DNA from: Candidatus Woesearchaeota archaeon
Lineage (GTDB): Archaea > Nanobdellota > Nanobdellia > SCGC-AAA011-G17 > JACPIM01
Direction of reading: 5' to 3'
Length of the DNA: 64,000 nt
Assembly (NCBI GenBank): GCA_964513145.1
Contig: CAZELK010000002.1
Span: 18,413 to 82,412, forward strand
Both the position numbers and the translations under genes were made by a program. Of the stretch, positions 3,945 through 44,292 are shown piece after piece. Every line of letters begins with the position of its first letter. Positions within the stretch are counted from its first letter, which is position 1. The notes under the pieces were generated by a model. The model had not been told where the DNA came from, searched no databases, and was given only the letters and a program-made list of their open reading frames with translations.

Positions 3945-9479
<5,535 letters not shown>

Positions 9480-31687: not shown

Positions 31688-31811
31688 TGGGCCCGGAGTG
31701 ATTTGAACACCCGACATATACGGCTTCAGCGTATTGCTCTCCTTAGCCACTCTTCTTAGTTTTTTTGATTAAACTTTTTTCTAAAAAGTTTACAGGCTGA
31801 GCTACGGGCCC
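31688..31811 (-). tRNA. tRNA-Phe (anticodon GAA) with a ~50-nt intron in the D-loop
   Basis: Acceptor GGGCCCG/CGGGCCC; anticodon arm ATACG-CTGAAGC-CGTAT (G37 present); T arm GGGTG-TTCAAAT-CACTC. The D-arm GCTC-AGCCTG[insert]GGA-GAGC is interrupted. The insert carries the hairpin AAACTTTTT-AGA-AAAAAGTTT. Confidence 0.7.
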
Positions 31812-32549: not shown

Positions 32550-33587
32550 CTATTTCGTCAATACTCGTTTAGTTCTAAATTTACTTTTAGGTCTGGAATT
32601 CAGCATTTTATCTTGTTCTTTTATTTTAACAAAATTCCACTTCCAAACATCTTCGTCCCTTACAAAAATTATAACCCTGCTTATTTTATCTTTTAATTTG
32701 GGAATATAACCTGTTTTATCCCCTATAACTTTTCCATACTCCTCTATATCTTTCATTGTAGGCATGTTACTTAGTTTGAGTCTTTTTTTACTTTCTCCTA
32801 GCCAGGAATACCCTTTTAATTGCACAAATTTTGGTTTGTAAATATTAATTAAATCAGAAAATTCAGAGGCATTATGATCATTCAAACCTTTTGTAATTGT
32901 AGTTCTCATTATAGTTCTTGAGTGTTTAAATTCTTTCATTAAACTTAAACTTTCTTTAACTTTTTCAAAAGCATTTGGAATCATGGAATTTGTAATTTTT
33001 TTATAATCTTCTTCATTCGTAGCATAAACACTAATGCTTAAATTATTCGGTTCAGCATCTTTGTCCAACATTTCTTTAATTCTGTTTGGCATTGTTCCAT
33101 TTGTAACAATAAAAACAGTCATCTTTCTATTTTTTATTTCTTTAATTAAATCTGCAATTTTTGGATAAAGTGTTGGTTCTCCGTCTAATGAAATTGCAAC
33201 ATGATGTGGATCCATTGCCTGAGCAAAATTTTCTTTAGTAACTATTCCGCCAAAACCAGATAATAAATTTCTTTGTGCACCAATTATTCCATCAACAATT
33301 TCTTCAGGCTCATCCCATTTATTTTCTGACTTAAATCTGTCTTTGCCAAATTTACGCCAACAAAATGTGCAGGAAAAATCACAAAAATCCATTGAGCTGG
33401 TCATTTGGACACAGCGGTGAGATTTAATACCGTAAATAGATTTGTAACAGTTATGGTCATTTTTAATTTTAGATTTAGTCCAGCGACATAACTGAACAGC
33501 AGTATGTTTATTCTTGCCTACAAATCTATATCCTGCTTTCTCATACTTTTTCTGTTCGTCGTTCGATAATTTTACAAATTCTTGCAT
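32550..33587 (-). CDS. taw1: radical SAM tRNA 4-demethylwyosine synthase (TYW1/Taw1)
   Basis: CDFSCTFC (Cx3Cx2C) radical SAM motif and a second N-terminal Cys cluster; the length and layout of archaeal Taw1. Adjacent to tRNA-Phe. Confidence 0.7.
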   Translation of the reverse strand: MQEFVKLSNDEQKKYEKAGYRFVGKNKHTAVQLCRWTKSKIKNDHNCYKSIYGIKSHRCVQMTSSMDFCDFSCTFCWRKFGKDRFKSENKWDEPEEIVDGIIGAQRNLLSGFGGIVTKENFAQAMDPHHVAISLDGEPTLYPKIADLIKEIKNRKMTVFIVTNGTMPNRIKEMLDKDAEPNNLSISVYATNEEDYKKITNSMIPNAFEKVKESLSLMKEFKHSRTIMRTTITKGLNDHNASEFSDLINIYKPKFVQLKGYSWLGESKKRLKLSNMPTMKDIEEYGKVIGDKTGYIPKLKDKISRVIIFVRDEDVWKWNFVKIKEQDKMLNSRPKSKFRTKRVLTK

Positions 33588-33730
33588 AATAGATTTAAGA
33601 AAGAGACATTTATAAAGACAACTTACAATTTATCTTGTTCTTCTTCTAAAAAAGAAATTTCTATATCCAGTAGAGAAATTTGTTATAGCTCTTTCATTAG
33701 TTATATCAACTTCTGGCAAACCATATTGTC

Positions 33731-33943
33731 TTAATATTGGGTTAACTTCATCAAATATAATTTTGGCCAAACCTTCTCTTCTTTTTTTACTATTTCTGAT
33801 AAGGTCTTTGCTCTTTCTATAGCTTGATTTCTATCAATTAATGAAGTAACATAGGCTTCTATAGATTCACTAGCTGTATCTGAAAATTCTAATGGTACCT
33901 TAGTATTTCTTCCAAAAATTTCTTCATAATTATGTATTAACAT
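33731..33943 (-). CDS. hypothetical protein, possibly frameshifted at an A7 run
   Basis: The 70-aa ORF continues in another frame for about 48 more codons past a homopolymer run. Confidence 0.3.
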   Translation of the reverse strand: MLIHNYEEIFGRNTKVPLEFSDTASESIEAYVTSLIDRNQAIERAKTLSEIVKKEEKVWPKLYLMKLTQY

Positions 33944-34150
33944 AAACTTTCTAAAAATTTTTATTTTATAAATGTTACTATTATTTTGTAGCTAAATAAT
34001 GAGTTAGATACCCTACCCAATCACCTATTACAGATCTATCCCTTATAGTTTCAGGATCTAAACTGTAAATTCCACCAACAGGTATTTCTTTATATAATTT
34101 AAACAAATATCTATTGAAAGCATATAATTTACTTATTAGAGCCTCATGAA

Positions 34151-34405
34151 TTATTTTTCTATTTTGTCTAACTCTTCTATTCTATTAACTACATCCCATT
34201 CTTCTCTATATTTTATTAATTGAATTCTTCTTTCCATACTTGAAACAAATTCCACGTATCTTTTACAACTGTCTACAAGATCATCTAAAAGTTCTAATCC
34301 TAATTTATCATTATGATCAATAAGAAATTTATGAATTAATTCATATCTCCAGCCAGCTTTTTCAACCTCTTCTTCTGACATTAATTTATTAAACATAGAA
34401 AACAT
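34151..34405 (-). CDS. hypothetical helical protein
   Basis: 84 aa. Confidence 0.3.
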   Translation of the reverse strand: MFSMFNKLMSEEEVEKAGWRYELIHKFLIDHNDKLGLELLDDLVDSCKRYVEFVSSMERRIQLIKYREEWDVVNRIEELDKIEK

Positions 34406-34423
34406 TATAAATATTTTTAACTA

Positions 34424-35947
34424 ATGTCATTTATAATGGAAAATTATGATGCTATATTTGTATTCCCTAAGTTATGGGAAAAAGAATTTAATCCACCTAA
34501 TCAGCCGCCTTATGGTTTGTTAATGTGCTCTGACTTATTATTAAAAAAAGGATACAATGTTTTAGTTTATGATGAAAGATTGGAAAGCCTGGGTGTAAAA
34601 AGCAGGTCAGAATTAGTTCAGGCTGTAAAGCACAGCAAGCCTTTATTTTTTGGAATATCTTCGCAATCAGGTCCAATGATTGAAAATGGTCTGTTAAATT
34701 CAAAATTCTTTAAACATGAATGTCCAGATACTCCTGTAGTCTGGGGTGGTGTTCATCCAACATTATTGCCAGACCAGACAATCAAACATCCATTAATTGA
34801 TGCTGTAATAAAAGGAGAAGGAGAACTGCCTTGTTTGGGATTGGCTGAAAATTTAAAAAAAGGAAATAAAGATTTTTCAAAAATTGATGGTTTATATTGG
34901 AAAGACAAAAATAAAAATATTAAAATAAATAAGCCTTGCCCAGGTGTTCCAGATTTAGATGAAATTAACATGAGGTGGGATTTAGTAAATCCGCAGCATT
35001 ATATAAGAGACATTGATGGAAAGAAATGGTTAGGGGTTATCACAAGCAGAGGATGTCCTTTTAGATGTGGTTTTTGTTATAACATATCTTTCTTTGGAAT
35101 GAGAAAATTCCGTGGATGGAGTCCTAAAAAATCCATAGAAGAAATAAAAAAAGTTTTGGAATGGGGTGTTGATTTTATTAATTTTGATGATGATTATATT
35201 TTCGGCGACCCACTAAGAATGTGGGGTATTTTAGATTTAAAAAAACAAGAAAATTTAAACTTCGAATGGAAAGCCCCGATAAGAGGCCATCTATTAAGAG
35301 ATGCATTAACAAAAAGACTCAAAGATGGTGGCTGTGCAAGTGTAACAATTGGTGCAGAAAGTGGAAGTGAAAAAGTTTTAGATTATATGACAAAAGATTC
35401 TGGTCCAGACGCTTATTATATGGCTGCCAAGAATTTAAAAAGATACGATATTCAGGGGAATTTCAGTTGGATTTTAGGTTATCCCGGTGAAACACTAAAA
35501 GATGTTTACATAACTCTAAATGTAATTAAAGACTTGGAAGAAATAAATCCAGACACAGAGCATGTTATTAACATTTATGCACCTTATCCAGGCACGCCTA
35601 GTTTTGATCAGGCTATAGAACGTGGATTCGTGCCTCCACCATCATTAGAAGGATGGACTGATAATTTCCGTGAAGCTTGCAAAGAATTGTCATACATTGA
35701 TGAAAAAAATAAAAAAATAATGGAAGCAATACGATGGGCTGGTATTTTCAGGACAATGTACAAAAGAAAGAGATTATATGCAAGCTGGATTAGACCTATT
35801 GTAAATGTTTTGGGGACTATTTCTAATGTAAGATGGAACCATAATCTATATAGCCTGCCAATAGAGCAAAAATCAGTAATTCTGGGAAGAGAAGTTTTAA
35901 AAAGAATGACAAGAAAGAAAAACGAAGAAATTGAAAACTTCTGTTAG
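34424..35947 (+). CDS. B12-binding domain radical SAM protein (class B rSAM)
   Basis: N-terminal cobalamin-binding-like domain, then SRGCPFRCGFC Cx3Cx2C; 507 aa. Confidence 0.8.
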   Translation: MSFIMENYDAIFVFPKLWEKEFNPPNQPPYGLLMCSDLLLKKGYNVLVYDERLESLGVKSRSELVQAVKHSKPLFFGISSQSGPMIENGLLNSKFFKHECPDTPVVWGGVHPTLLPDQTIKHPLIDAVIKGEGELPCLGLAENLKKGNKDFSKIDGLYWKDKNKNIKINKPCPGVPDLDEINMRWDLVNPQHYIRDIDGKKWLGVITSRGCPFRCGFCYNISFFGMRKFRGWSPKKSIEEIKKVLEWGVDFINFDDDYIFGDPLRMWGILDLKKQENLNFEWKAPIRGHLLRDALTKRLKDGGCASVTIGAESGSEKVLDYMTKDSGPDAYYMAAKNLKRYDIQGNFSWILGYPGETLKDVYITLNVIKDLEEINPDTEHVINIYAPYPGTPSFDQAIERGFVPPPSLEGWTDNFREACKELSYIDEKNKKIMEAIRWAGIFRTMYKRKRLYASWIRPIVNVLGTISNVRWNHNLYSLPIEQKSVILGREVLKRMTRKKNEEIENFC

Positions 35948-35988
35948 AAACTTTTTTTAAAAGTTTCATCAAAAGCGAGATGTAGATT

Positions 35989-36144
35989 ATGGGGAACATC
36001 ACTGTTAAAGCGAGTAATGGAAAAGTAGGACATAAATTGAAAAAGTTAAAAGAACACGGGCTTTATTTATGTTTAACTTGTGGTGAAATAGTTAAATCTG
36101 ACGGAAATTTATTAGAAGGAAATGAATTTCATGGCGTGAATTAA
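35989..36144 (+). CDS. small hypothetical protein (51 aa), not in ORF track
   Basis: MGNITVKASNGKVGHKLKKLKEHGLYLCLTCGEIVKSDGNLLEGNEFHGVN. Its stop overlaps the next ATG (TAATG). Confidence 0.25.
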   Translation: MGNITVKASNGKVGHKLKKLKEHGLYLCLTCGEIVKSDGNLLEGNEFHGVN

Positions 36145-36294
36145 TGACAGAATCCTATAAAAATATATTATTAGATATAGCTGGCTTTACTATTGTTTCA
36201 TTTGGTATAAAAACAGAAGATGTTTTTACAACTATTTTTGGTTTATTAATTATTTTTTAGATATTAAATTCAAATTAAATGAGGTTGAAAATAA

Positions 36295-36365
36295 AATAGA
36301 AGATTTAAATATTAGAATAGAAGATTTAAATATTAGAATAGAAGATTTAAATATTAGAATAGATA
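36295..36365. repeat. 21-nt tandem repeat (aatagaagatttaaatattag) x3.3, coding for IEDLNIR heptads in one frame
   Basis: Three exact units plus a diverged partial unit. Confidence 0.9.
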
Positions 36366-36519
36366 ACTATAAAGATATTGTAGAATTAAATCAAGAAATT
36401 AATCAAATAAAAAAAGGATTAGGTAAAAATAAAAAATGATAAATAAATATGGAAAAAATAAATTAGATGCATCAACAATTCTAATAATAATATTAATTAT
36501 TGTTTTTTTATATTTCCTA

Positions 36520-36939
36520 TTACACAATAAAGGATTTATCTAAAAAGTATTTTTCAAAATTCTCACAAGGTTCATTTAACCAGGAAGGTATTTTTTCTTT
36601 TTGATTTAAGTTAGTCCATATAAACTCAGTGTGTTCTTCACTTAATTTTATAGTATTTGTAATTGGCTTGCAAAAAAATATCAGCATAATTATTTTTTGA
36701 CCATCATCTCTTATAAAATGCTGAACTTGTGAGGGAGAAATAATATTAATATCCAACCCAGTTTCTTCTTTAGTTTCTCTTTTTAATCCAATAAAAGGGT
36801 CTTCACCTAGTTCTAATCTTCCACCAGGAATATCCCAAGCTCCAGGTTTGTGAACATCATTGGTTCTTCTCCTAATTAAAAGAACATTTCCTTTATTATC
36901 AACAATAAATGATTTTACAGCTATTCTAAAATTCTCCAT
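36520..36939 (-). CDS. NUDIX hydrolase
   Basis: Nudix box GGRLELGEDPFIGLKRETKEETGL. Confidence 0.85.
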   Translation of the reverse strand: MENFRIAVKSFIVDNKGNVLLIRRRTNDVHKPGAWDIPGGRLELGEDPFIGLKRETKEETGLDINIISPSQVQHFIRDDGQKIIMLIFFCKPITNTIKLSEEHTEFIWTNLNQKEKIPSWLNEPCENFEKYFLDKSFIV

Positions 36940-36946
36940 TTTCCAG

Positions 36947-37468
36947 TCATTTTTCTTTTTTTAATTTATCAAATAAAATCCAAAATTGATTTATAATTTC
37001 ACCACTTAATCTAAAATTATGTGAAGTCATCTCTGTAATCAAAAACTGAACTTCTTTTTCTGTAATAAACTTTTTCTTAAAAGCGAGTAATAAAACCCTT
37101 AAAGACCCACCTGAATTTAACCCATATAATTTAGCTACCTTTCGTGCGGTTTTATCGTCAGTTAACAATTCATCATGTTCCTGTAAAGCTAAAGCAATAG
37201 ATTGCGCTTCACCTTTGCCTAATTGATACGTTTTTCTTAAAGATTCAGATTTATCATTCCATTTATCTTCAAGTTTCTTAACAGTAATAAATTTATTTTC
37301 AAGAAAATCCTTTACTAGAAAAGAATCCGGAGTATTATTTATAATTCCGTTCCGAACTACTTCTTTGTATACTGCTTCAGAAATAAGTAAGTTCGAGAAA
37401 ACTCTTTTTAGTAAACCTAATTTATTCAATTTACCAAAGATAATTAATGAAGTAGAATCACAGATCAT
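36947..37468 (-). CDS. DUF3368-like PIN-related putative toxin
   Basis: N-terminal ICDSTSLII pattern; paired with the upstream UPF0175 gene. Confidence 0.5.
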   Translation of the reverse strand: MICDSTSLIIFGKLNKLGLLKRVFSNLLISEAVYKEVVRNGIINNTPDSFLVKDFLENKFITVKKLEDKWNDKSESLRKTYQLGKGEAQSIALALQEHDELLTDDKTARKVAKLYGLNSGGSLRVLLLAFKKKFITEKEVQFLITEMTSHNFRLSGEIINQFWILFDKLKKEK

Positions 37469-37761
37469 AAGCCTTCAAAATCTTCGATCAATTCTTCCTT
37501 TGAGTAATGAAATAACAATCCTTTTTCTTTTAGGATATCCATAAATCTTGTTAAAGGTATTTCAGCTAATTCCGCAGCTTTCCCAATGCTTATTTCTTCT
37601 TTTTGGTATTTCTCTAAGGCAATTTCTAATTTTTTATTTTTAATGCCTATTTCTAATACATCCCTAAGTACATCTGATTTGGAGATTTTTTCTTGTTTGG
37701 ATATCTGGTCTATTTCTTTAAGATTTTTTTCAGGTATTCTTACTGATATTGTTTCTGCCAT
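37465..37761 (-). CDS. UPF0175-family putative antitoxin
   Basis: ISVRIPEKNLKEIDQ...SIGKAAELAEIP pattern. I place the start at the internal Met (MAETISV). Confidence 0.5.
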   Translation of the reverse strand: MAETISVRIPEKNLKEIDQISKQEKISKSDVLRDVLEIGIKNKKLEIALEKYQKEEISIGKAAELAEIPLTRFMDILKEKGLLFHYSKEELIEDFEGL

Positions 37762-37857
37762 AATGTATACATATGTAGCAAGATGTATATAAATATTTTG
37801 TTTCACAAAAAATTTGTAAATAATTAACAATATTTGCAGATTTGCGGTTCTTTTTTC

Positions 37858-41682: not shown

Positions 41683-44292
41683 ATGGACTTAAAAACAAAA
41701 CAAAAATTAAAGAAATTTATAGCAAACTTGTCAATAGTCAGGGGAAGGCATACTGAGTTGGTTTCTGTTTATGTTCCAGCTGGATACGATTTAAATAAAA
41801 TTATTAATCATTTGCAGCAGGAGCAGGGAACAGCATCCAACATAAAAGATGCAAGAACAAGGGCAAATGTAACAGATAGTCTGGAAAGAATGATCAAGCA
41901 CCTAAGATTATTTAAAAGAACTCCTGAAAACGGCTTGGCTGTATTTGCCGGTGATATTTCTCAGGCAGAAAATAAAATTGATATTCAAGTTTTTAGTATT
42001 GAACCGCCAGAGCCATTAAAAGTAAAAATTTACAGGTGCGATCAGACATTTTATTTAGATTTAATTAAAGACATGATGGAGCATAAAGAAGTTTACGGTC
42101 TTATAACTATGGACAAAAGAGAATGCAGCATTGGTTATTTACAAGGCACTTACATAAAATTAGCACATAATTTAACATCTGGTGTTCCTGGGAAAATGCG
42201 TGCCGGAGGGCAGTGCTTATTACCAGACACACTAATACAATCTGCGGAAGGCGATATTTTTGAAATTGAAAAAAGTCACAATCCTCATGTTTTAGTTGGC
42301 TGTGAAATAGATAAATTATCAGCTAAGAATACGCCAATCACAGATAAATGGAATACTAAAAAAAATACAATTTACAAAATAATAACAAAATATCCAAGAA
42401 TAGAATTAGAATGTTCAAAAGATCACGTATTTTTTGTGAGAGAAGATAAATTAGTTGAAAAAGCAGCTGAAGAACTTAAAGAAGGCGATTTTTTAATAAT
42501 GCCTGAACAAATTAATATTAAAGGTAAAGAAATCCACTTTAATCCAATAAAATATTATAATATACTTTATTTAACAAAAGAAGGTAGAGATTTAATTAAG
42601 AATTTAAGAGAAGAAAAGAAACTATATCAAAAGCAATTAGCAAAAGAAATAGGTGTAACTCAAACAGCAATTTCAATAATCGAATTAGGCAAAGAAGGAA
42701 TAAGAGCTAATTTCTTGCAAAGATTATGTCAAAAATTACAGATTAATTTTGAGGAATTTATAAATAATTATACTTCTCATAAATCAACTATAAAACTTCC
42801 AGAGAGATTAGATGAGAAACTTGCACAAATTACTGGATATTTTTTAGGTGATGGAAACTATGAAGAAGAAAGAATCTGTTTTTCAGAAGAAAGAAAAGAC
42901 GTTGCAGAATATTATAGTAATTTATTAAAAAATTACTTTCGTGCAAAGGTCAGTTTAAAATATAGAGAGAAAAAGCATTATTGGTTAATAAGAGCCAACG
43001 GAAAACCAATAGTGAGATTTTTAAAAAATGAATTTCCAGAATTAAGAAATAATGATATAAATACAATTCCAAAGAAAATACTTGAATCAGATAATAAAAT
43101 AGTTGCTGCTTTTTTAAATGGTCTTTTTGACGCCGAAGGGTATCCAAGTTCTTCTCGATCAGTCAGCCTTGGGATGAATAATAAAAGATTAATTCAACAA
43201 CTACAAATGCTTTTGTTAAGATTTAGCATAATTTCCTCATTTATTGAAAATGATAATAAACATAATCCTTATACTAAAAATCATTGTTTTATTGTAGATA
43301 TTACAGAAAAAGAGTCAATAAAATTATTCAAGGAGAATATCGGTTTTACAGCTATAGGAAAATGTAAAAATCTAAATGAAATAATAAACCTAAGAAAAAA
43401 CAAAAAAGAATTAAGTAGAGTAAGAAGAATTTTGATGTCTGGGAAAAAAGTTCGAGAGATTATAGAAGAGTTCGGTTATAATATAGAATTATTCCCTAAA
43501 GTTTCAGGATTTTTTATTGATAAAAGAATGATAAGCAAAAAAGTGTTCTATAAATCAATTTTAAAAGAAGTAGAAAATAAAGATAAAAAATTATATAATA
43601 AATTATTTGAAATTTACAAAGCGAATATTCTCCCAGTTAAAATTAAATCAATAGAAGTAACAAATAAATCAGTAAAAATGGTTGATATCTCAACGCAACA
43701 AGGTAATTTTATAGCAAATTGTTTAATAGTCCATAACTCTGCAAATCGTTTCGCAAGATTAAGGGAAGAAGCTGCTAAAGAATTTTATAACAGAATAAGT
43801 GAAATTGTAAATAAAGAATTTTTGGGCAGACAAGAAATAAAAGGAATTATAATAGGTGGTCCAGGCCATACAAAGGAAGAGTTGCTAGAGTATCTAAATA
43901 ATGAAATCAGGAAAAAAGTAATTGGCACTAAGGATATTACTTACACAGATGAATCTGGTCTTCATGATTTAGTTGAAAAATCTCAAGATATTTTAGCAAA
44001 TGAAATTGTTATGCAGGAAAAGGCATTGATGGCTCGATTCTTCGATACCTTAGGAAAAACTCCAAATAAAATTGTTTATGGTATAAACGAAGTTAGACAT
44101 GCCCTGGAATTATCTGCAGTCGACATAGTTCTTGCTAGTGAAGATTTAGATGATAAAACAATCGAGGAATTAGAAGAATCATGTATAAAAAGTGGCTGTA
44201 AGCTTCAGATAATATCTGTTGATACAAGGGAAGGAAAACAATTGAAAGATCTTGGTAGTGTTGGGGCTATTTTAAGATATGAGATTCAATAA
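41683..44292 (+). CDS. prf1: peptide chain release factor aRF1 (eRF1 homolog) interrupted by an intein right after the GGQ motif
   Basis: NIKD/NIKS-like motif (ASNIKD) and GKMRAGGQ. The extein resumes SANRFARLREEAAKEF. Domain 3 is intact. Confidence 0.9.
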   Translation: MDLKTKQKLKKFIANLSIVRGRHTELVSVYVPAGYDLNKIINHLQQEQGTASNIKDARTRANVTDSLERMIKHLRLFKRTPENGLAVFAGDISQAENKIDIQVFSIEPPEPLKVKIYRCDQTFYLDLIKDMMEHKEVYGLITMDKRECSIGYLQGTYIKLAHNLTSGVPGKMRAGGQCLLPDTLIQSAEGDIFEIEKSHNPHVLVGCEIDKLSAKNTPITDKWNTKKNTIYKIITKYPRIELECSKDHVFFVREDKLVEKAAEELKEGDFLIMPEQINIKGKEIHFNPIKYYNILYLTKEGRDLIKNLREEKKLYQKQLAKEIGVTQTAISIIELGKEGIRANFLQRLCQKLQINFEEFINNYTSHKSTIKLPERLDEKLAQITGYFLGDGNYEEERICFSEERKDVAEYYSNLLKNYFRAKVSLKYREKKHYWLIRANGKPIVRFLKNEFPELRNNDINTIPKKILESDNKIVAAFLNGLFDAEGYPSSSRSVSLGMNNKRLIQQLQMLLLRFSIISSFIENDNKHNPYTKNHCFIVDITEKESIKLFKENIGFTAIGKCKNLNEIINLRKNKKELSRVRRILMSGKKVREIIEEFGYNIELFPKVSGFFIDKRMISKKVFYKSILKEVENKDKKLYNKLFEIYKANILPVKIKSIEVTNKSVKMVDISTQQGNFIANCLIVHNSANRFARLREEAAKEFYNRISEIVNKEFLGRQEIKGIIIGGPGHTKEELLEYLNNEIRKKVIGTKDITYTDESGLHDLVEKSQDILANEIVMQEKALMARFFDTLGKTPNKIVYGINEVRHALELSAVDIVLASEDLDDKTIEELEESCIKSGCKLQIISVDTREGKQLKDLGSVGAILRYEIQ
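42214..43737 (+). mobile_element. aRF1 intein (aa 178-685, 508 aa) with HTH and LAGLIDADG homing endonuclease
   Basis: Starts CLLPDTLIQ and ends CLIVHN, followed by SANRF. LAGLIDADG motifs (LAQITGYFLGDGNYEE, AAFLNGLFDAEGYPS) and an HTH (LYQKQLAKEIGVTQTAISIIELGKEG). Confidence 0.8.

Follow-up and report, generated by a model that had tools for sequence, protein, structure and literature searches.

Class B radical S-adenosylmethionine (SAM) enzymes are the cobalamin (B12)-binding members of the radical SAM group. Those with solved structures, among them TsrM, MgmA/QCMT (PDB entry 9CCB), OxsB, AprD4, CysS and TokK, share an N-terminal Rossmann domain that binds B12 and, after it, a radical SAM barrel containing a CxxxCxxC motif. 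Enzymes of this class lie next to short open reading frames (ORFs) in systems of the proteusin PoyB/PoyC type (TIGR03975) and in that of ApyD, both of which make ribosomally synthesized and post-translationally modified peptides (RiPPs). Small conserved genes also adjoin radical SAM genes in the SCIFF/maturase, MftA/MftC and PqqA/PqqE pairs, whose maturases are SPASM/twitch enzymes with RiPP recognition element (RRE) domains and do not bind B12. Among archaea, the small CPxCG proteins of Haloferax are zinc-finger micro-proteins of comparable size. Here we analyze a class B radical SAM gene and the conserved 51-amino-acid (aa) mini-protein gene that follows it in a Candidatus Woesearchaeota archaeon. 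The window, meaning the whole stretch that was analyzed, comprises 64,000 nucleotides (nt) of GenBank assembly GCA_964513145.1 (contig CAZELK010000002.1, positions 18,413 to 82,412, forward strand). We favor, with some reserve, a reading in which this orphan enzyme probably tailors an envelope substrate other than a peptide, and the neighboring gene encodes a metal-binding mini-protein specific to the clade.

The radical SAM enzyme and its companion mini-protein

The two genes of the pair lie on the same strand:

34424..35947, + strand: class B (cobalamin-binding) radical SAM enzyme, 507 aa, with Pfam B12-binding and Radical_SAM domains
35989..36144, + strand: conserved Cys2His2 mini-protein gene, 51 aa, with the pattern H15-x12-C28-x2-C31-x16-H48-G49 and the C-terminal sequence DGNLLEGNEFHG

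The original prediction of a 507-aa class B enzyme with a cobalamin domain and a CPFRCGFC motif is borne out by Pfam, motif and fold alike. PF02310 (B12-binding) scores 40.3 bits against a cut-off of 32.1 over residues 28-137, PF04055 (Radical_SAM) scores 63.7 bits against 29.5, and these are the sole Pfam domains of the protein. The CxxxCxxC motif (C211, C215 and C218) is invariant in an alignment of 28 homologues. Because orthologues begin at MENYD, the true start is probably the ATG at 34436. Orthologues of 57-91% identity were recovered from many contigs of metagenomes and metagenome-assembled genomes; where a particular contig has to be named below, it carries an L number.

An AlphaFold (AF2) model of the enzyme has a predicted local distance difference test score (pLDDT) of 88, and its top Foldseek matches are TsrM, MgmA (9CCB), OxsB, AprD4, CysS and TokK, with E-values of 1e-14 to 1e-17. 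The domain order is that of the solved enzymes. The structural alignments, however, carry only 14-19% identity, and the C-terminal helical domain (approximately residues 400-507) is peculiar to the family of the window enzyme. By sequence, the nearest solved chain (phmmer against PDB) is 9CCB with 53 bits, which a 2026 review identifies as QCMT, the glutamine C-methyltransferase of methyl-coenzyme M reductase (MCR) (PMC12931638). A scan against NCBIfam with its curated equivalog cut-offs gave the following scores, in which the best profiles all lie three- to seven-fold under their cut-offs:

BchE (TIGR02026): 137 bits (136.7), cut-off 481
HpnJ (TIGR03471): 124 bits (124.1), cut-off 578
PhpK: 106 bits, cut-off 600
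ApyD (NF050148): 105 bits, cut-off 750
MCR glutamine methylase MgmA/QCMT (TIGR04014): 76 bits (75.8), cut-off 360
Lipid B12-binding radical SAM enzyme (TIGR04072): 75 bits (75.3), cut-off 360
Proteusin-type RiPP methylase (TIGR03975): 45 bits, cut-off 282

BchE and HpnJ, the best-scoring curated profiles, align across about 375 residues, yet the enzyme scores 3.5 to 4.7 times under their equivalog cut-offs, and no bacteriochlorophyll or hopanoid genes were found in the window. As for MgmA/QCMT, to our knowledge no MCR is to be expected in a DPANN genome. Since no curated subfamily cut-off is reached, the protein is assigned to an unnamed family, and on its sequence and model it is an orphan class B radical SAM protein. 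In the literature, we found no paper on this family or on its pairing with the mini-protein.

The 51-aa ORF, which the original prediction had placed directly after the enzyme on the same strand together with a 38-aa transmembrane (TM) ORF, is present as described, as is the TM ORF. In an alignment of 20 versions of the mini-protein (family length 46-54 aa), H15, L17, L20, C28, C31, E33, K36, D38, E43, G44, H48 and G49 are invariant; the approximately 13 N-terminal residues vary, and residues 14-49 are uniformly conserved. Nonsynonymous differences between versions are few (pN 0.06-0.40) against saturated synonymous ones (pS 0.49-0.81), which indicates that the frame is under purifying selection, and by this codon pattern the ORF is a genuine gene.

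Linkage to the enzyme was counted over 14 distinct variants of the mini-ORF, 12 of which have enough upstream sequence to judge. The mini-ORF lies downstream of the radical SAM gene, on the same strand, in 11 of these 12 informative variants, and in 10 of the 11 linked ones the gap is -1 to 133 nt, with stop/start overlap of the two genes in L015 and L110. A 245-aa gene without a Pfam match (6580-7317) is inserted exactly between the two in L011, its stop overlapping the start of the mini-ORF, and in L103 there is no radical SAM gene in the 409 nt of sequence upstream of the mini-ORF. A clade-specific extra domain by which the enzyme might dock the mini-protein was considered and rejected, since its C-terminal tail, longer by about 20 aa, is all that differs.

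In a word-indexed search, 5.8 billion proteins yielded approximately 20 clusters of the mini-protein. An exhaustive profile search of 1.84 billion representatives returned its own family and a single 96-aa relative (P0142) in which H-x12-CxxC-x16-H is kept; a eukaryotic repeat protein (P0141) matched in the same search was judged spurious. The mini-protein was found at none of the approximately 85 loci carrying radical SAM homologues of 47% identity or less, and the small ORFs beside one such homologue (46%, L008) proved unrelated to it. By these sequence searches, the family is confined to one clade of Woesearchaeota-type DPANN archaea.

The AF2 model of the mini-protein is all-beta and of modest confidence (pLDDT 70). 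Above threshold, the mini-protein matches no family in Pfam or NCBIfam; the sub-threshold Pfam and PDB profile matches are to CoiA_N (14 of the 20 members), zf-UBP, the Fur structural-zinc segment and Zn_Ribbon_TF, and non-significant similarity to Rieske and Zn-ribbon knuckles recurs. The residue pattern and the model would be easier to reconcile with a small metal-binding protein of the Cys2His2 kind than with a precursor made of leader and core. Like the archaeal zinc-finger micro-proteins, the mini-protein is archaeal and about 50 aa long, with a CxxC knuckle and a predicted beta-ribbon, although it has one CxxC only and two histidines (H-x12-CxxC-x16-H). It also resembles the peptides of the SCIFF, MftA/MftC and PqqA/PqqE pairs in length (approximately 45-55 aa), in its conserved C-terminal motif and in being encoded beside a radical SAM gene; unlike those pairs, the pairing here is restricted to one shallow archaeal clade.

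A frameshifted membrane-protein gene downstream

Beyond the mini-protein gene, the original prediction had noted the TM ORF and a peptide of heptad repeats, both of which fall within a single gene:

36144..36260, + strand: 5' half (hydrophobic, TM; 38 codons) of a frameshifted small membrane-protein gene, matching P0143 residues 1-38 (E = 3e-12)
36252..36260, + strand: frameshift site, a 1-nt deletion relative to L100 in a pairwise DNA alignment, with a T6 run (36253-36258) that leads into an in-frame TAG
36257..36439, + strand: 3' half (coiled-coil/heptad tail) of the same gene in the -1 frame, matching the C-terminal part of P0143 (E = 1e-6)
36295..36363, + strand: perfect 21-nt tandem repeat, 3.3 copies, encoding IEDLNIR (TRF score 138, 100% matches)

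The ATG of the TM ORF overlaps the stop of the 51-aa ORF (TAATG). When this ORF and the heptad frame were joined as one query, they matched P0143, a 70-aa protein from contig L100, whose strain has a 91% identical radical SAM enzyme. P0143 reads MIDSYKNILLDIVGFITVAYGASNKDVFTTIFGLLLIF-IDLNIKLNGVENKIEDLNIKLKKNKNNIQKKK, with both pieces of the window in one frame. At the DNA level, the window has ATTAT-TTTTTAG against GATATTTATTGAT in L100, and the deletion creates the TAG at 36258-36260. An assembly error at the T-run is unlikely, since the T6 run is identical in the independent contigs L017 and L018. Both contigs come from the same study and end inside the repeat, so the comparison covers the run and not the copy number.

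The 21-nt tandem repeat encoding IEDLNIR heptads was confirmed and is far beyond chance. The IEDLNI[KR] unit is single-copy in L100 (IEDLNIK), and the repeat is thus probably a recent expansion. The full heptad frame (36161-36439), whose translation ends in LDIKFKLNEVENKIEDLNIRIEDLNIRIEDLNIRIDNYKDIVELNQEINQIKKGLGKNKK and a stop, contains no ATG, GTG or TTG and hence did not appear in the ORF list; what had been taken for a free-standing heptad peptide is the 3' half of the frameshifted gene. The TM/coiled-coil gene was not found in L001, L005, L013 or L109, and in L012 an unrelated 85-aa protein with two TM segments occupies its position. By comparison with these loci, the TM ORF and the heptad stretch are the halves of one sporadic accessory gene, frameshifted and apparently inactivated here. 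We accordingly rejected both as precursors: the gene is intact in L100, the heptad frame is startless and most orthologous loci lack the gene. Small neighboring ORFs had been regarded as a hallmark of precursor peptides whose conservation beside orthologous enzymes would be telling; the 51-aa ORF holds up as a conserved companion within the clade, whereas the other two are pieces of one gene that is gone from most orthologous loci.

It is very improbable that the TM/coiled-coil gene is kept alive by -1 slippage of tRNA-Phe on the U-run (A UUA UUU UUU AG) with the TAG in the A site, which would yield a protein of about 98 aa. The needed shift is indeed -1, at a six-U run with a stop codon immediately after it, no stop interrupts the downstream frame for 60 codons, its end overlaps the start of the following ORF (ATGA), and the sequence is identical in three assemblies. 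However, the canonical heptamer, X XXY YYZ, is not matched in the zero frame; L100, the sister strain, has the protein in a single frame; any recent indel would leave the downstream frame open; and most relatives dispense with the gene. Rescue by a -1 slip could in principle occur, and nothing requires it.

Distant relatives and the substrate of the enzyme

The next-closest relatives of the enzyme (44-47% identity) align with it end to end and occur without the mini-ORF. Three of their loci are as follows:

L008, 4310-7437: 46% relative whose start overlaps the ThrRS stop by 7 nt, with DUF362, a family 4 glycosyltransferase (GT4) and another B12-binding radical SAM gene a few kb off
L101, 2766-7945: relative lying between a second B12-binding radical SAM enzyme, a Phosphodiest enzyme, DUF362 and an LPG_synthase_TM protein
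L102, 1447-7648: relative with a methyltransferase, a second B12-binding radical SAM enzyme, Phosphodiest and a sulfatase-family enzyme

The overlap with ThrRS in L008 suggests co-translation with a housekeeping gene. Across the clusters of these relatives (L101, 2766-7945; L102, 1447-7648; L008, 10474-13437), a second B12-binding radical SAM enzyme, DUF362, Phosphodiest/sulfatase enzymes of the alkaline-phosphatase superfamily, GT4, a methyltransferase and LPG_synthase_TM recur. These represent an uncharacterized type of putative envelope-modification cluster in small-genome archaea, which may merit its own study.

Relatives of 28-47% identity align with the enzyme over its full length. The neighbor census covered 107 genes around 20 of them; a scan of genome contigs contributed homologues of 34% identity or less among the matches listed, which were used for the census only. 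It counted 12 other radical SAM proteins, of which 6 have a B12 domain, 7 GT1/GT4 glycosyltransferases and 7 class I methyltransferases, besides 4 PMT_2, 3 GT2, and 2 each of DUF362, LPG_synthase_TM and Phosphodiest. Judged by gene content, this is the signature of glycan/envelope tailoring clusters and not of peptide clusters, and from it we infer a non-peptide cell-envelope substrate, either a glycan or a lipid-linked sugar or head group. The GT2 genes nearest to the enzyme in the window are about 10 kb away.

In the reading that we tentatively favor, the two genes form a unit that occurs only in a single clade of Woesearchaeota-type DPANN archaea. Going by what is typical of the family, a [4Fe-4S] cluster on C211, C215 and C218 would cleave SAM reductively, the resulting 5'-deoxyadenosyl radical would take a hydrogen atom from an unactivated carbon, and the cobalamin in the N-terminal Rossmann domain would then deliver a methyl group or mediate a related rearrangement. 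The likeliest substrate would be the non-peptide envelope molecule suggested by the census. The four invariant histidines and cysteines and the predicted beta-ribbon suggest that the mini-protein is a small metal-binding, zinc-finger-like protein; it would have arisen in the clade beside the enzyme and may help the enzyme or act independently. The TM/coiled-coil gene, probably inactivated by the 1-nt deletion and with its 21-nt repeat lately expanded, would contribute no precursor peptides. Several observations weigh against this reading. The substrate is suggested by homologues at or under 47% identity, a basis that becomes weaker with divergence, and the superfamily is known to diverge in function; the glycan/envelope partner genes are not beside the enzyme in the clade of the window, where the linkage has been lost. 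Strict pairing with a short conserved ORF often marks radical SAM substrates, and of the solved chains the one nearest in sequence, 9CCB (MgmA/QCMT), acts on a protein. For the mini-protein, metal binding is drawn from a residue pattern and sub-threshold matches only, and the clade is shallow, so that the pairing could be partly inherited synteny.

The same pairing can be read as a RiPP-like or protein-modification module, in which the enzyme would C-methylate or otherwise modify the 51-aa protein, for example in its invariant C-terminal DGNLLEGNEFHG, so that the product would be a peptide or small protein carrying the modification, or a cofactor derived from the peptide. We regard this as unlikely, while noting that a good deal speaks for it. 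A short gene that adjoins the maturase and is conserved with it is one of the criteria for a RiPP, and here the order of enzyme and mini-ORF is kept in 11 of the 12 informative variants despite changing flanks, with stop/start overlap in two of them; the mini-ORF occurs only alongside this clade of enzymes. Its length and conserved C-terminus recall the radical SAM substrates SCIFF, MftA and PqqA, a protein methylase is the best PDB sequence match of the enzyme, and there are partial matches to the RiPP profiles of ApyD and TIGR03975. On the other hand, those two profiles score 105 against 750 and 45 against 282, with BchE and HpnJ scoring higher, and the locus contains no known RiPP radical SAM family, no RRE/PqqD domain, no leader/core precursor and no protease, transporter or tailoring genes. 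Conservation over residues 14-49 behind a variable N-terminus is not a leader/core layout, and the mini-protein is a predicted beta mini-domain with a pattern of two cysteines and two histidines. The 44-47% relatives, moreover, work without any such peptide, and other genes separate the pair (L011) or replace the enzyme upstream (L103). Whereas the PoyB/PoyC and ApyD systems likewise place a class B enzyme next to a short ORF, the window is without a recognizable leader family, protease or exporter, and its adjacent ORF is uniformly conserved and rich in cysteine and histidine. It is similarly doubtful that the mini-protein is the substrate in a minimal two-gene, B12-dependent peptide- or protein-modification system born in a genome-reduced DPANN clade, operating without leader/RRE logic and yielding a modified micro-protein or a cofactor made from the peptide; such a system would be novel. 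The peptide-modification cassette of the original prediction therefore survives in its conserved 51-aa ORF and falls short in every other RiPP hallmark, with RiPP radical SAM profiles far under cut-off, and a peptide natural-product cassette is no more than possible.

The mini-protein could also serve as an accessory subunit, a Zn- or Fe-binding adaptor or electron-transfer partner of an enzyme that acts on another substrate. The invariant H15, C28, C31 and H48, the beta-ribbon model, the non-significant similarities to Rieske, Zn-ribbon knuckle and Fur structural-zinc segments and the tight linkage all agree with such a role, which we nevertheless consider quite improbable: homologous enzymes elsewhere occur without the mini-protein, and no class B radical SAM enzyme is known to us to have such a partner. 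Modification of tRNA or rRNA, for instance in or beside the wyosine pathway, would be suggested by the Taw1/TYW1 gene upstream on the opposite strand, which is found at every orthologous locus with enough sequence, by the TRM5/TYW2 methyltransferase in the window and by the overlap of the L008 relative with ThrRS. Yet CysRS, Taw1, the radical SAM gene, ValRS and eRF1 form a block that is syntenic throughout the shallow clade, so adjacency to Taw1 is not specific; strain-specific ORFs fill the spacer between Taw1 and the enzyme, more distant relatives show no link to Taw1 and we know of no class B radical SAM enzyme acting on RNA. An RNA substrate is accordingly very unlikely. We give just as little credence to tailoring of isoprenoid tetraether lipids by an enzyme of the GrsA/Tes/Gmm type, which the original prediction had offered as its alternative. 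Archaeal GrsA, GrsB and Gmm are B12-binding radical SAM enzymes, with a few DPANN homologues of Gms and Gmm reported (PMC11214058), and there is a weak match to TIGR04072. That match reaches 75 bits against a cut-off of 360, however, and no tetraether-synthase structure occurs in the 3 PDB sequence matches or the top 50 fold matches, the presence of such an entry in the library being unchecked. The window contains no lipid-synthesis genes, and around the relatives lie genes for glycosyltransferases and methyltransferases rather than grs, tes or gms. This alternative thus found no direct support, and the context of the distant relatives points instead to glycan/envelope clusters.

Flanking genes and biological significance

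The window is AT-rich and dense in information-processing genes, including CDC48, topoisomerases I and VI, MCM, TBP, CysRS, Taw1, ValRS, eRF1, PCNA and the CCA-adding enzyme. Its genes have their nearest relatives in sequences labeled Candidatus Woesearchaeota, which places it in a DPANN archaeon. The neighbors of the pair are Taw1, strain-specific small ORFs, a PIN/UPF0175 pair, a NUDIX gene and ValRS. Other features of the window are as follows:

203-820, + strand: TRM5/TYW2-type methyltransferase
3945-9479, - strand: CDC48 with several intein stretches, 1844 aa
24357-28007, - strand: MCM with an intein, 1216 aa, also with an HTH_3 domain
32550-33587, - strand: Taw1 (TYW1)
33630-34405, - strand: ORFs of 84 aa (DUF3232 match, 30.9 bits), 70 aa and 41 aa between Taw1 and the radical SAM gene, in the window and L017 only
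36436-36543, + strand: 35-aa hydrophobic ORF MINKYGKNKLDASTILIIILIIVFLYFLLHNKGFI of uncertain status, its ATG overlapping the TGA of the heptad frame (ATGA)
36947-37830, - strand: toxin-antitoxin-like pair of PIN/DUF3368 (173 aa) and UPF0175/RHH (121 aa), just downstream of the locus
41683-44292, + strand: eRF1 with an intein, 869 aa, also with an HTH_3 domain

Strain-variable sequence flanks the pair on both sides. In other lineages, the spacer between Taw1 and the enzyme holds unrelated genes (77/52 aa, 200 aa, 193 aa, 152 aa or a carbamoyltransferase), and downstream of the pair there follow, depending on the strain, the PIN/UPF0175 pair, a NUDIX gene, small membrane proteins or other genes. 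The PIN/DUF3368 and UPF0175/RHH pair is also present in L001, L005 and L013, at shifting positions relative to the mini-ORF, which marks the region as a variable island. The 35-aa hydrophobic ORF reaches into the 3' end of the NUDIX gene, which is convergent with it, and no homologue of it was found in any fetched locus. An Rfam scan of the locus gave no match, and a hairpin after the radical SAM stop (GAAACTTTT-TTT-AAAAGTTTC) was dismissed as no better than shuffled sequence (z = 0.16).

Elsewhere in the window, inteins with LAGLIDADG homing-endonuclease domains occupy three essential genes, CDC48, MCM and eRF1. The intein content of eRF1 varies between related strains, from intein-free versions of 361-371 aa (L005, L011) to versions of 496 aa (L001) and 831 aa (L012). 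An Rfam tRNA match at 31695-31750 on the - strand scores 32 bits (gathering score 29) and covers model positions 7-64 of 71, and ARAGORN found no tRNA anywhere in the 64 kb; the match could represent a tRNA that is partial, split or interrupted by an intron, or else a marginal false positive. The presence of both the TRM5/TYW2-type methyltransferase and Taw1 suggests that this reduced genome keeps at least part of the wyosine tRNA-modification pathway.

As matters stand, the enzyme adds one more to the orphan class B radical SAM proteins. The heptad "peptide" can be dropped from consideration, leaving the conserved mini-protein as the sole candidate worth testing. If the pairing is functional, it would offer a compact, experimentally tractable two-gene case with a 51-residue candidate substrate or partner, and it would mean that a symbiotic archaeon unable to make B12 has retained a cobalamin-dependent radical enzyme. 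Such a pairing could bring to light a substrate class or an accessory protein that is new for class B radical SAM enzymes.

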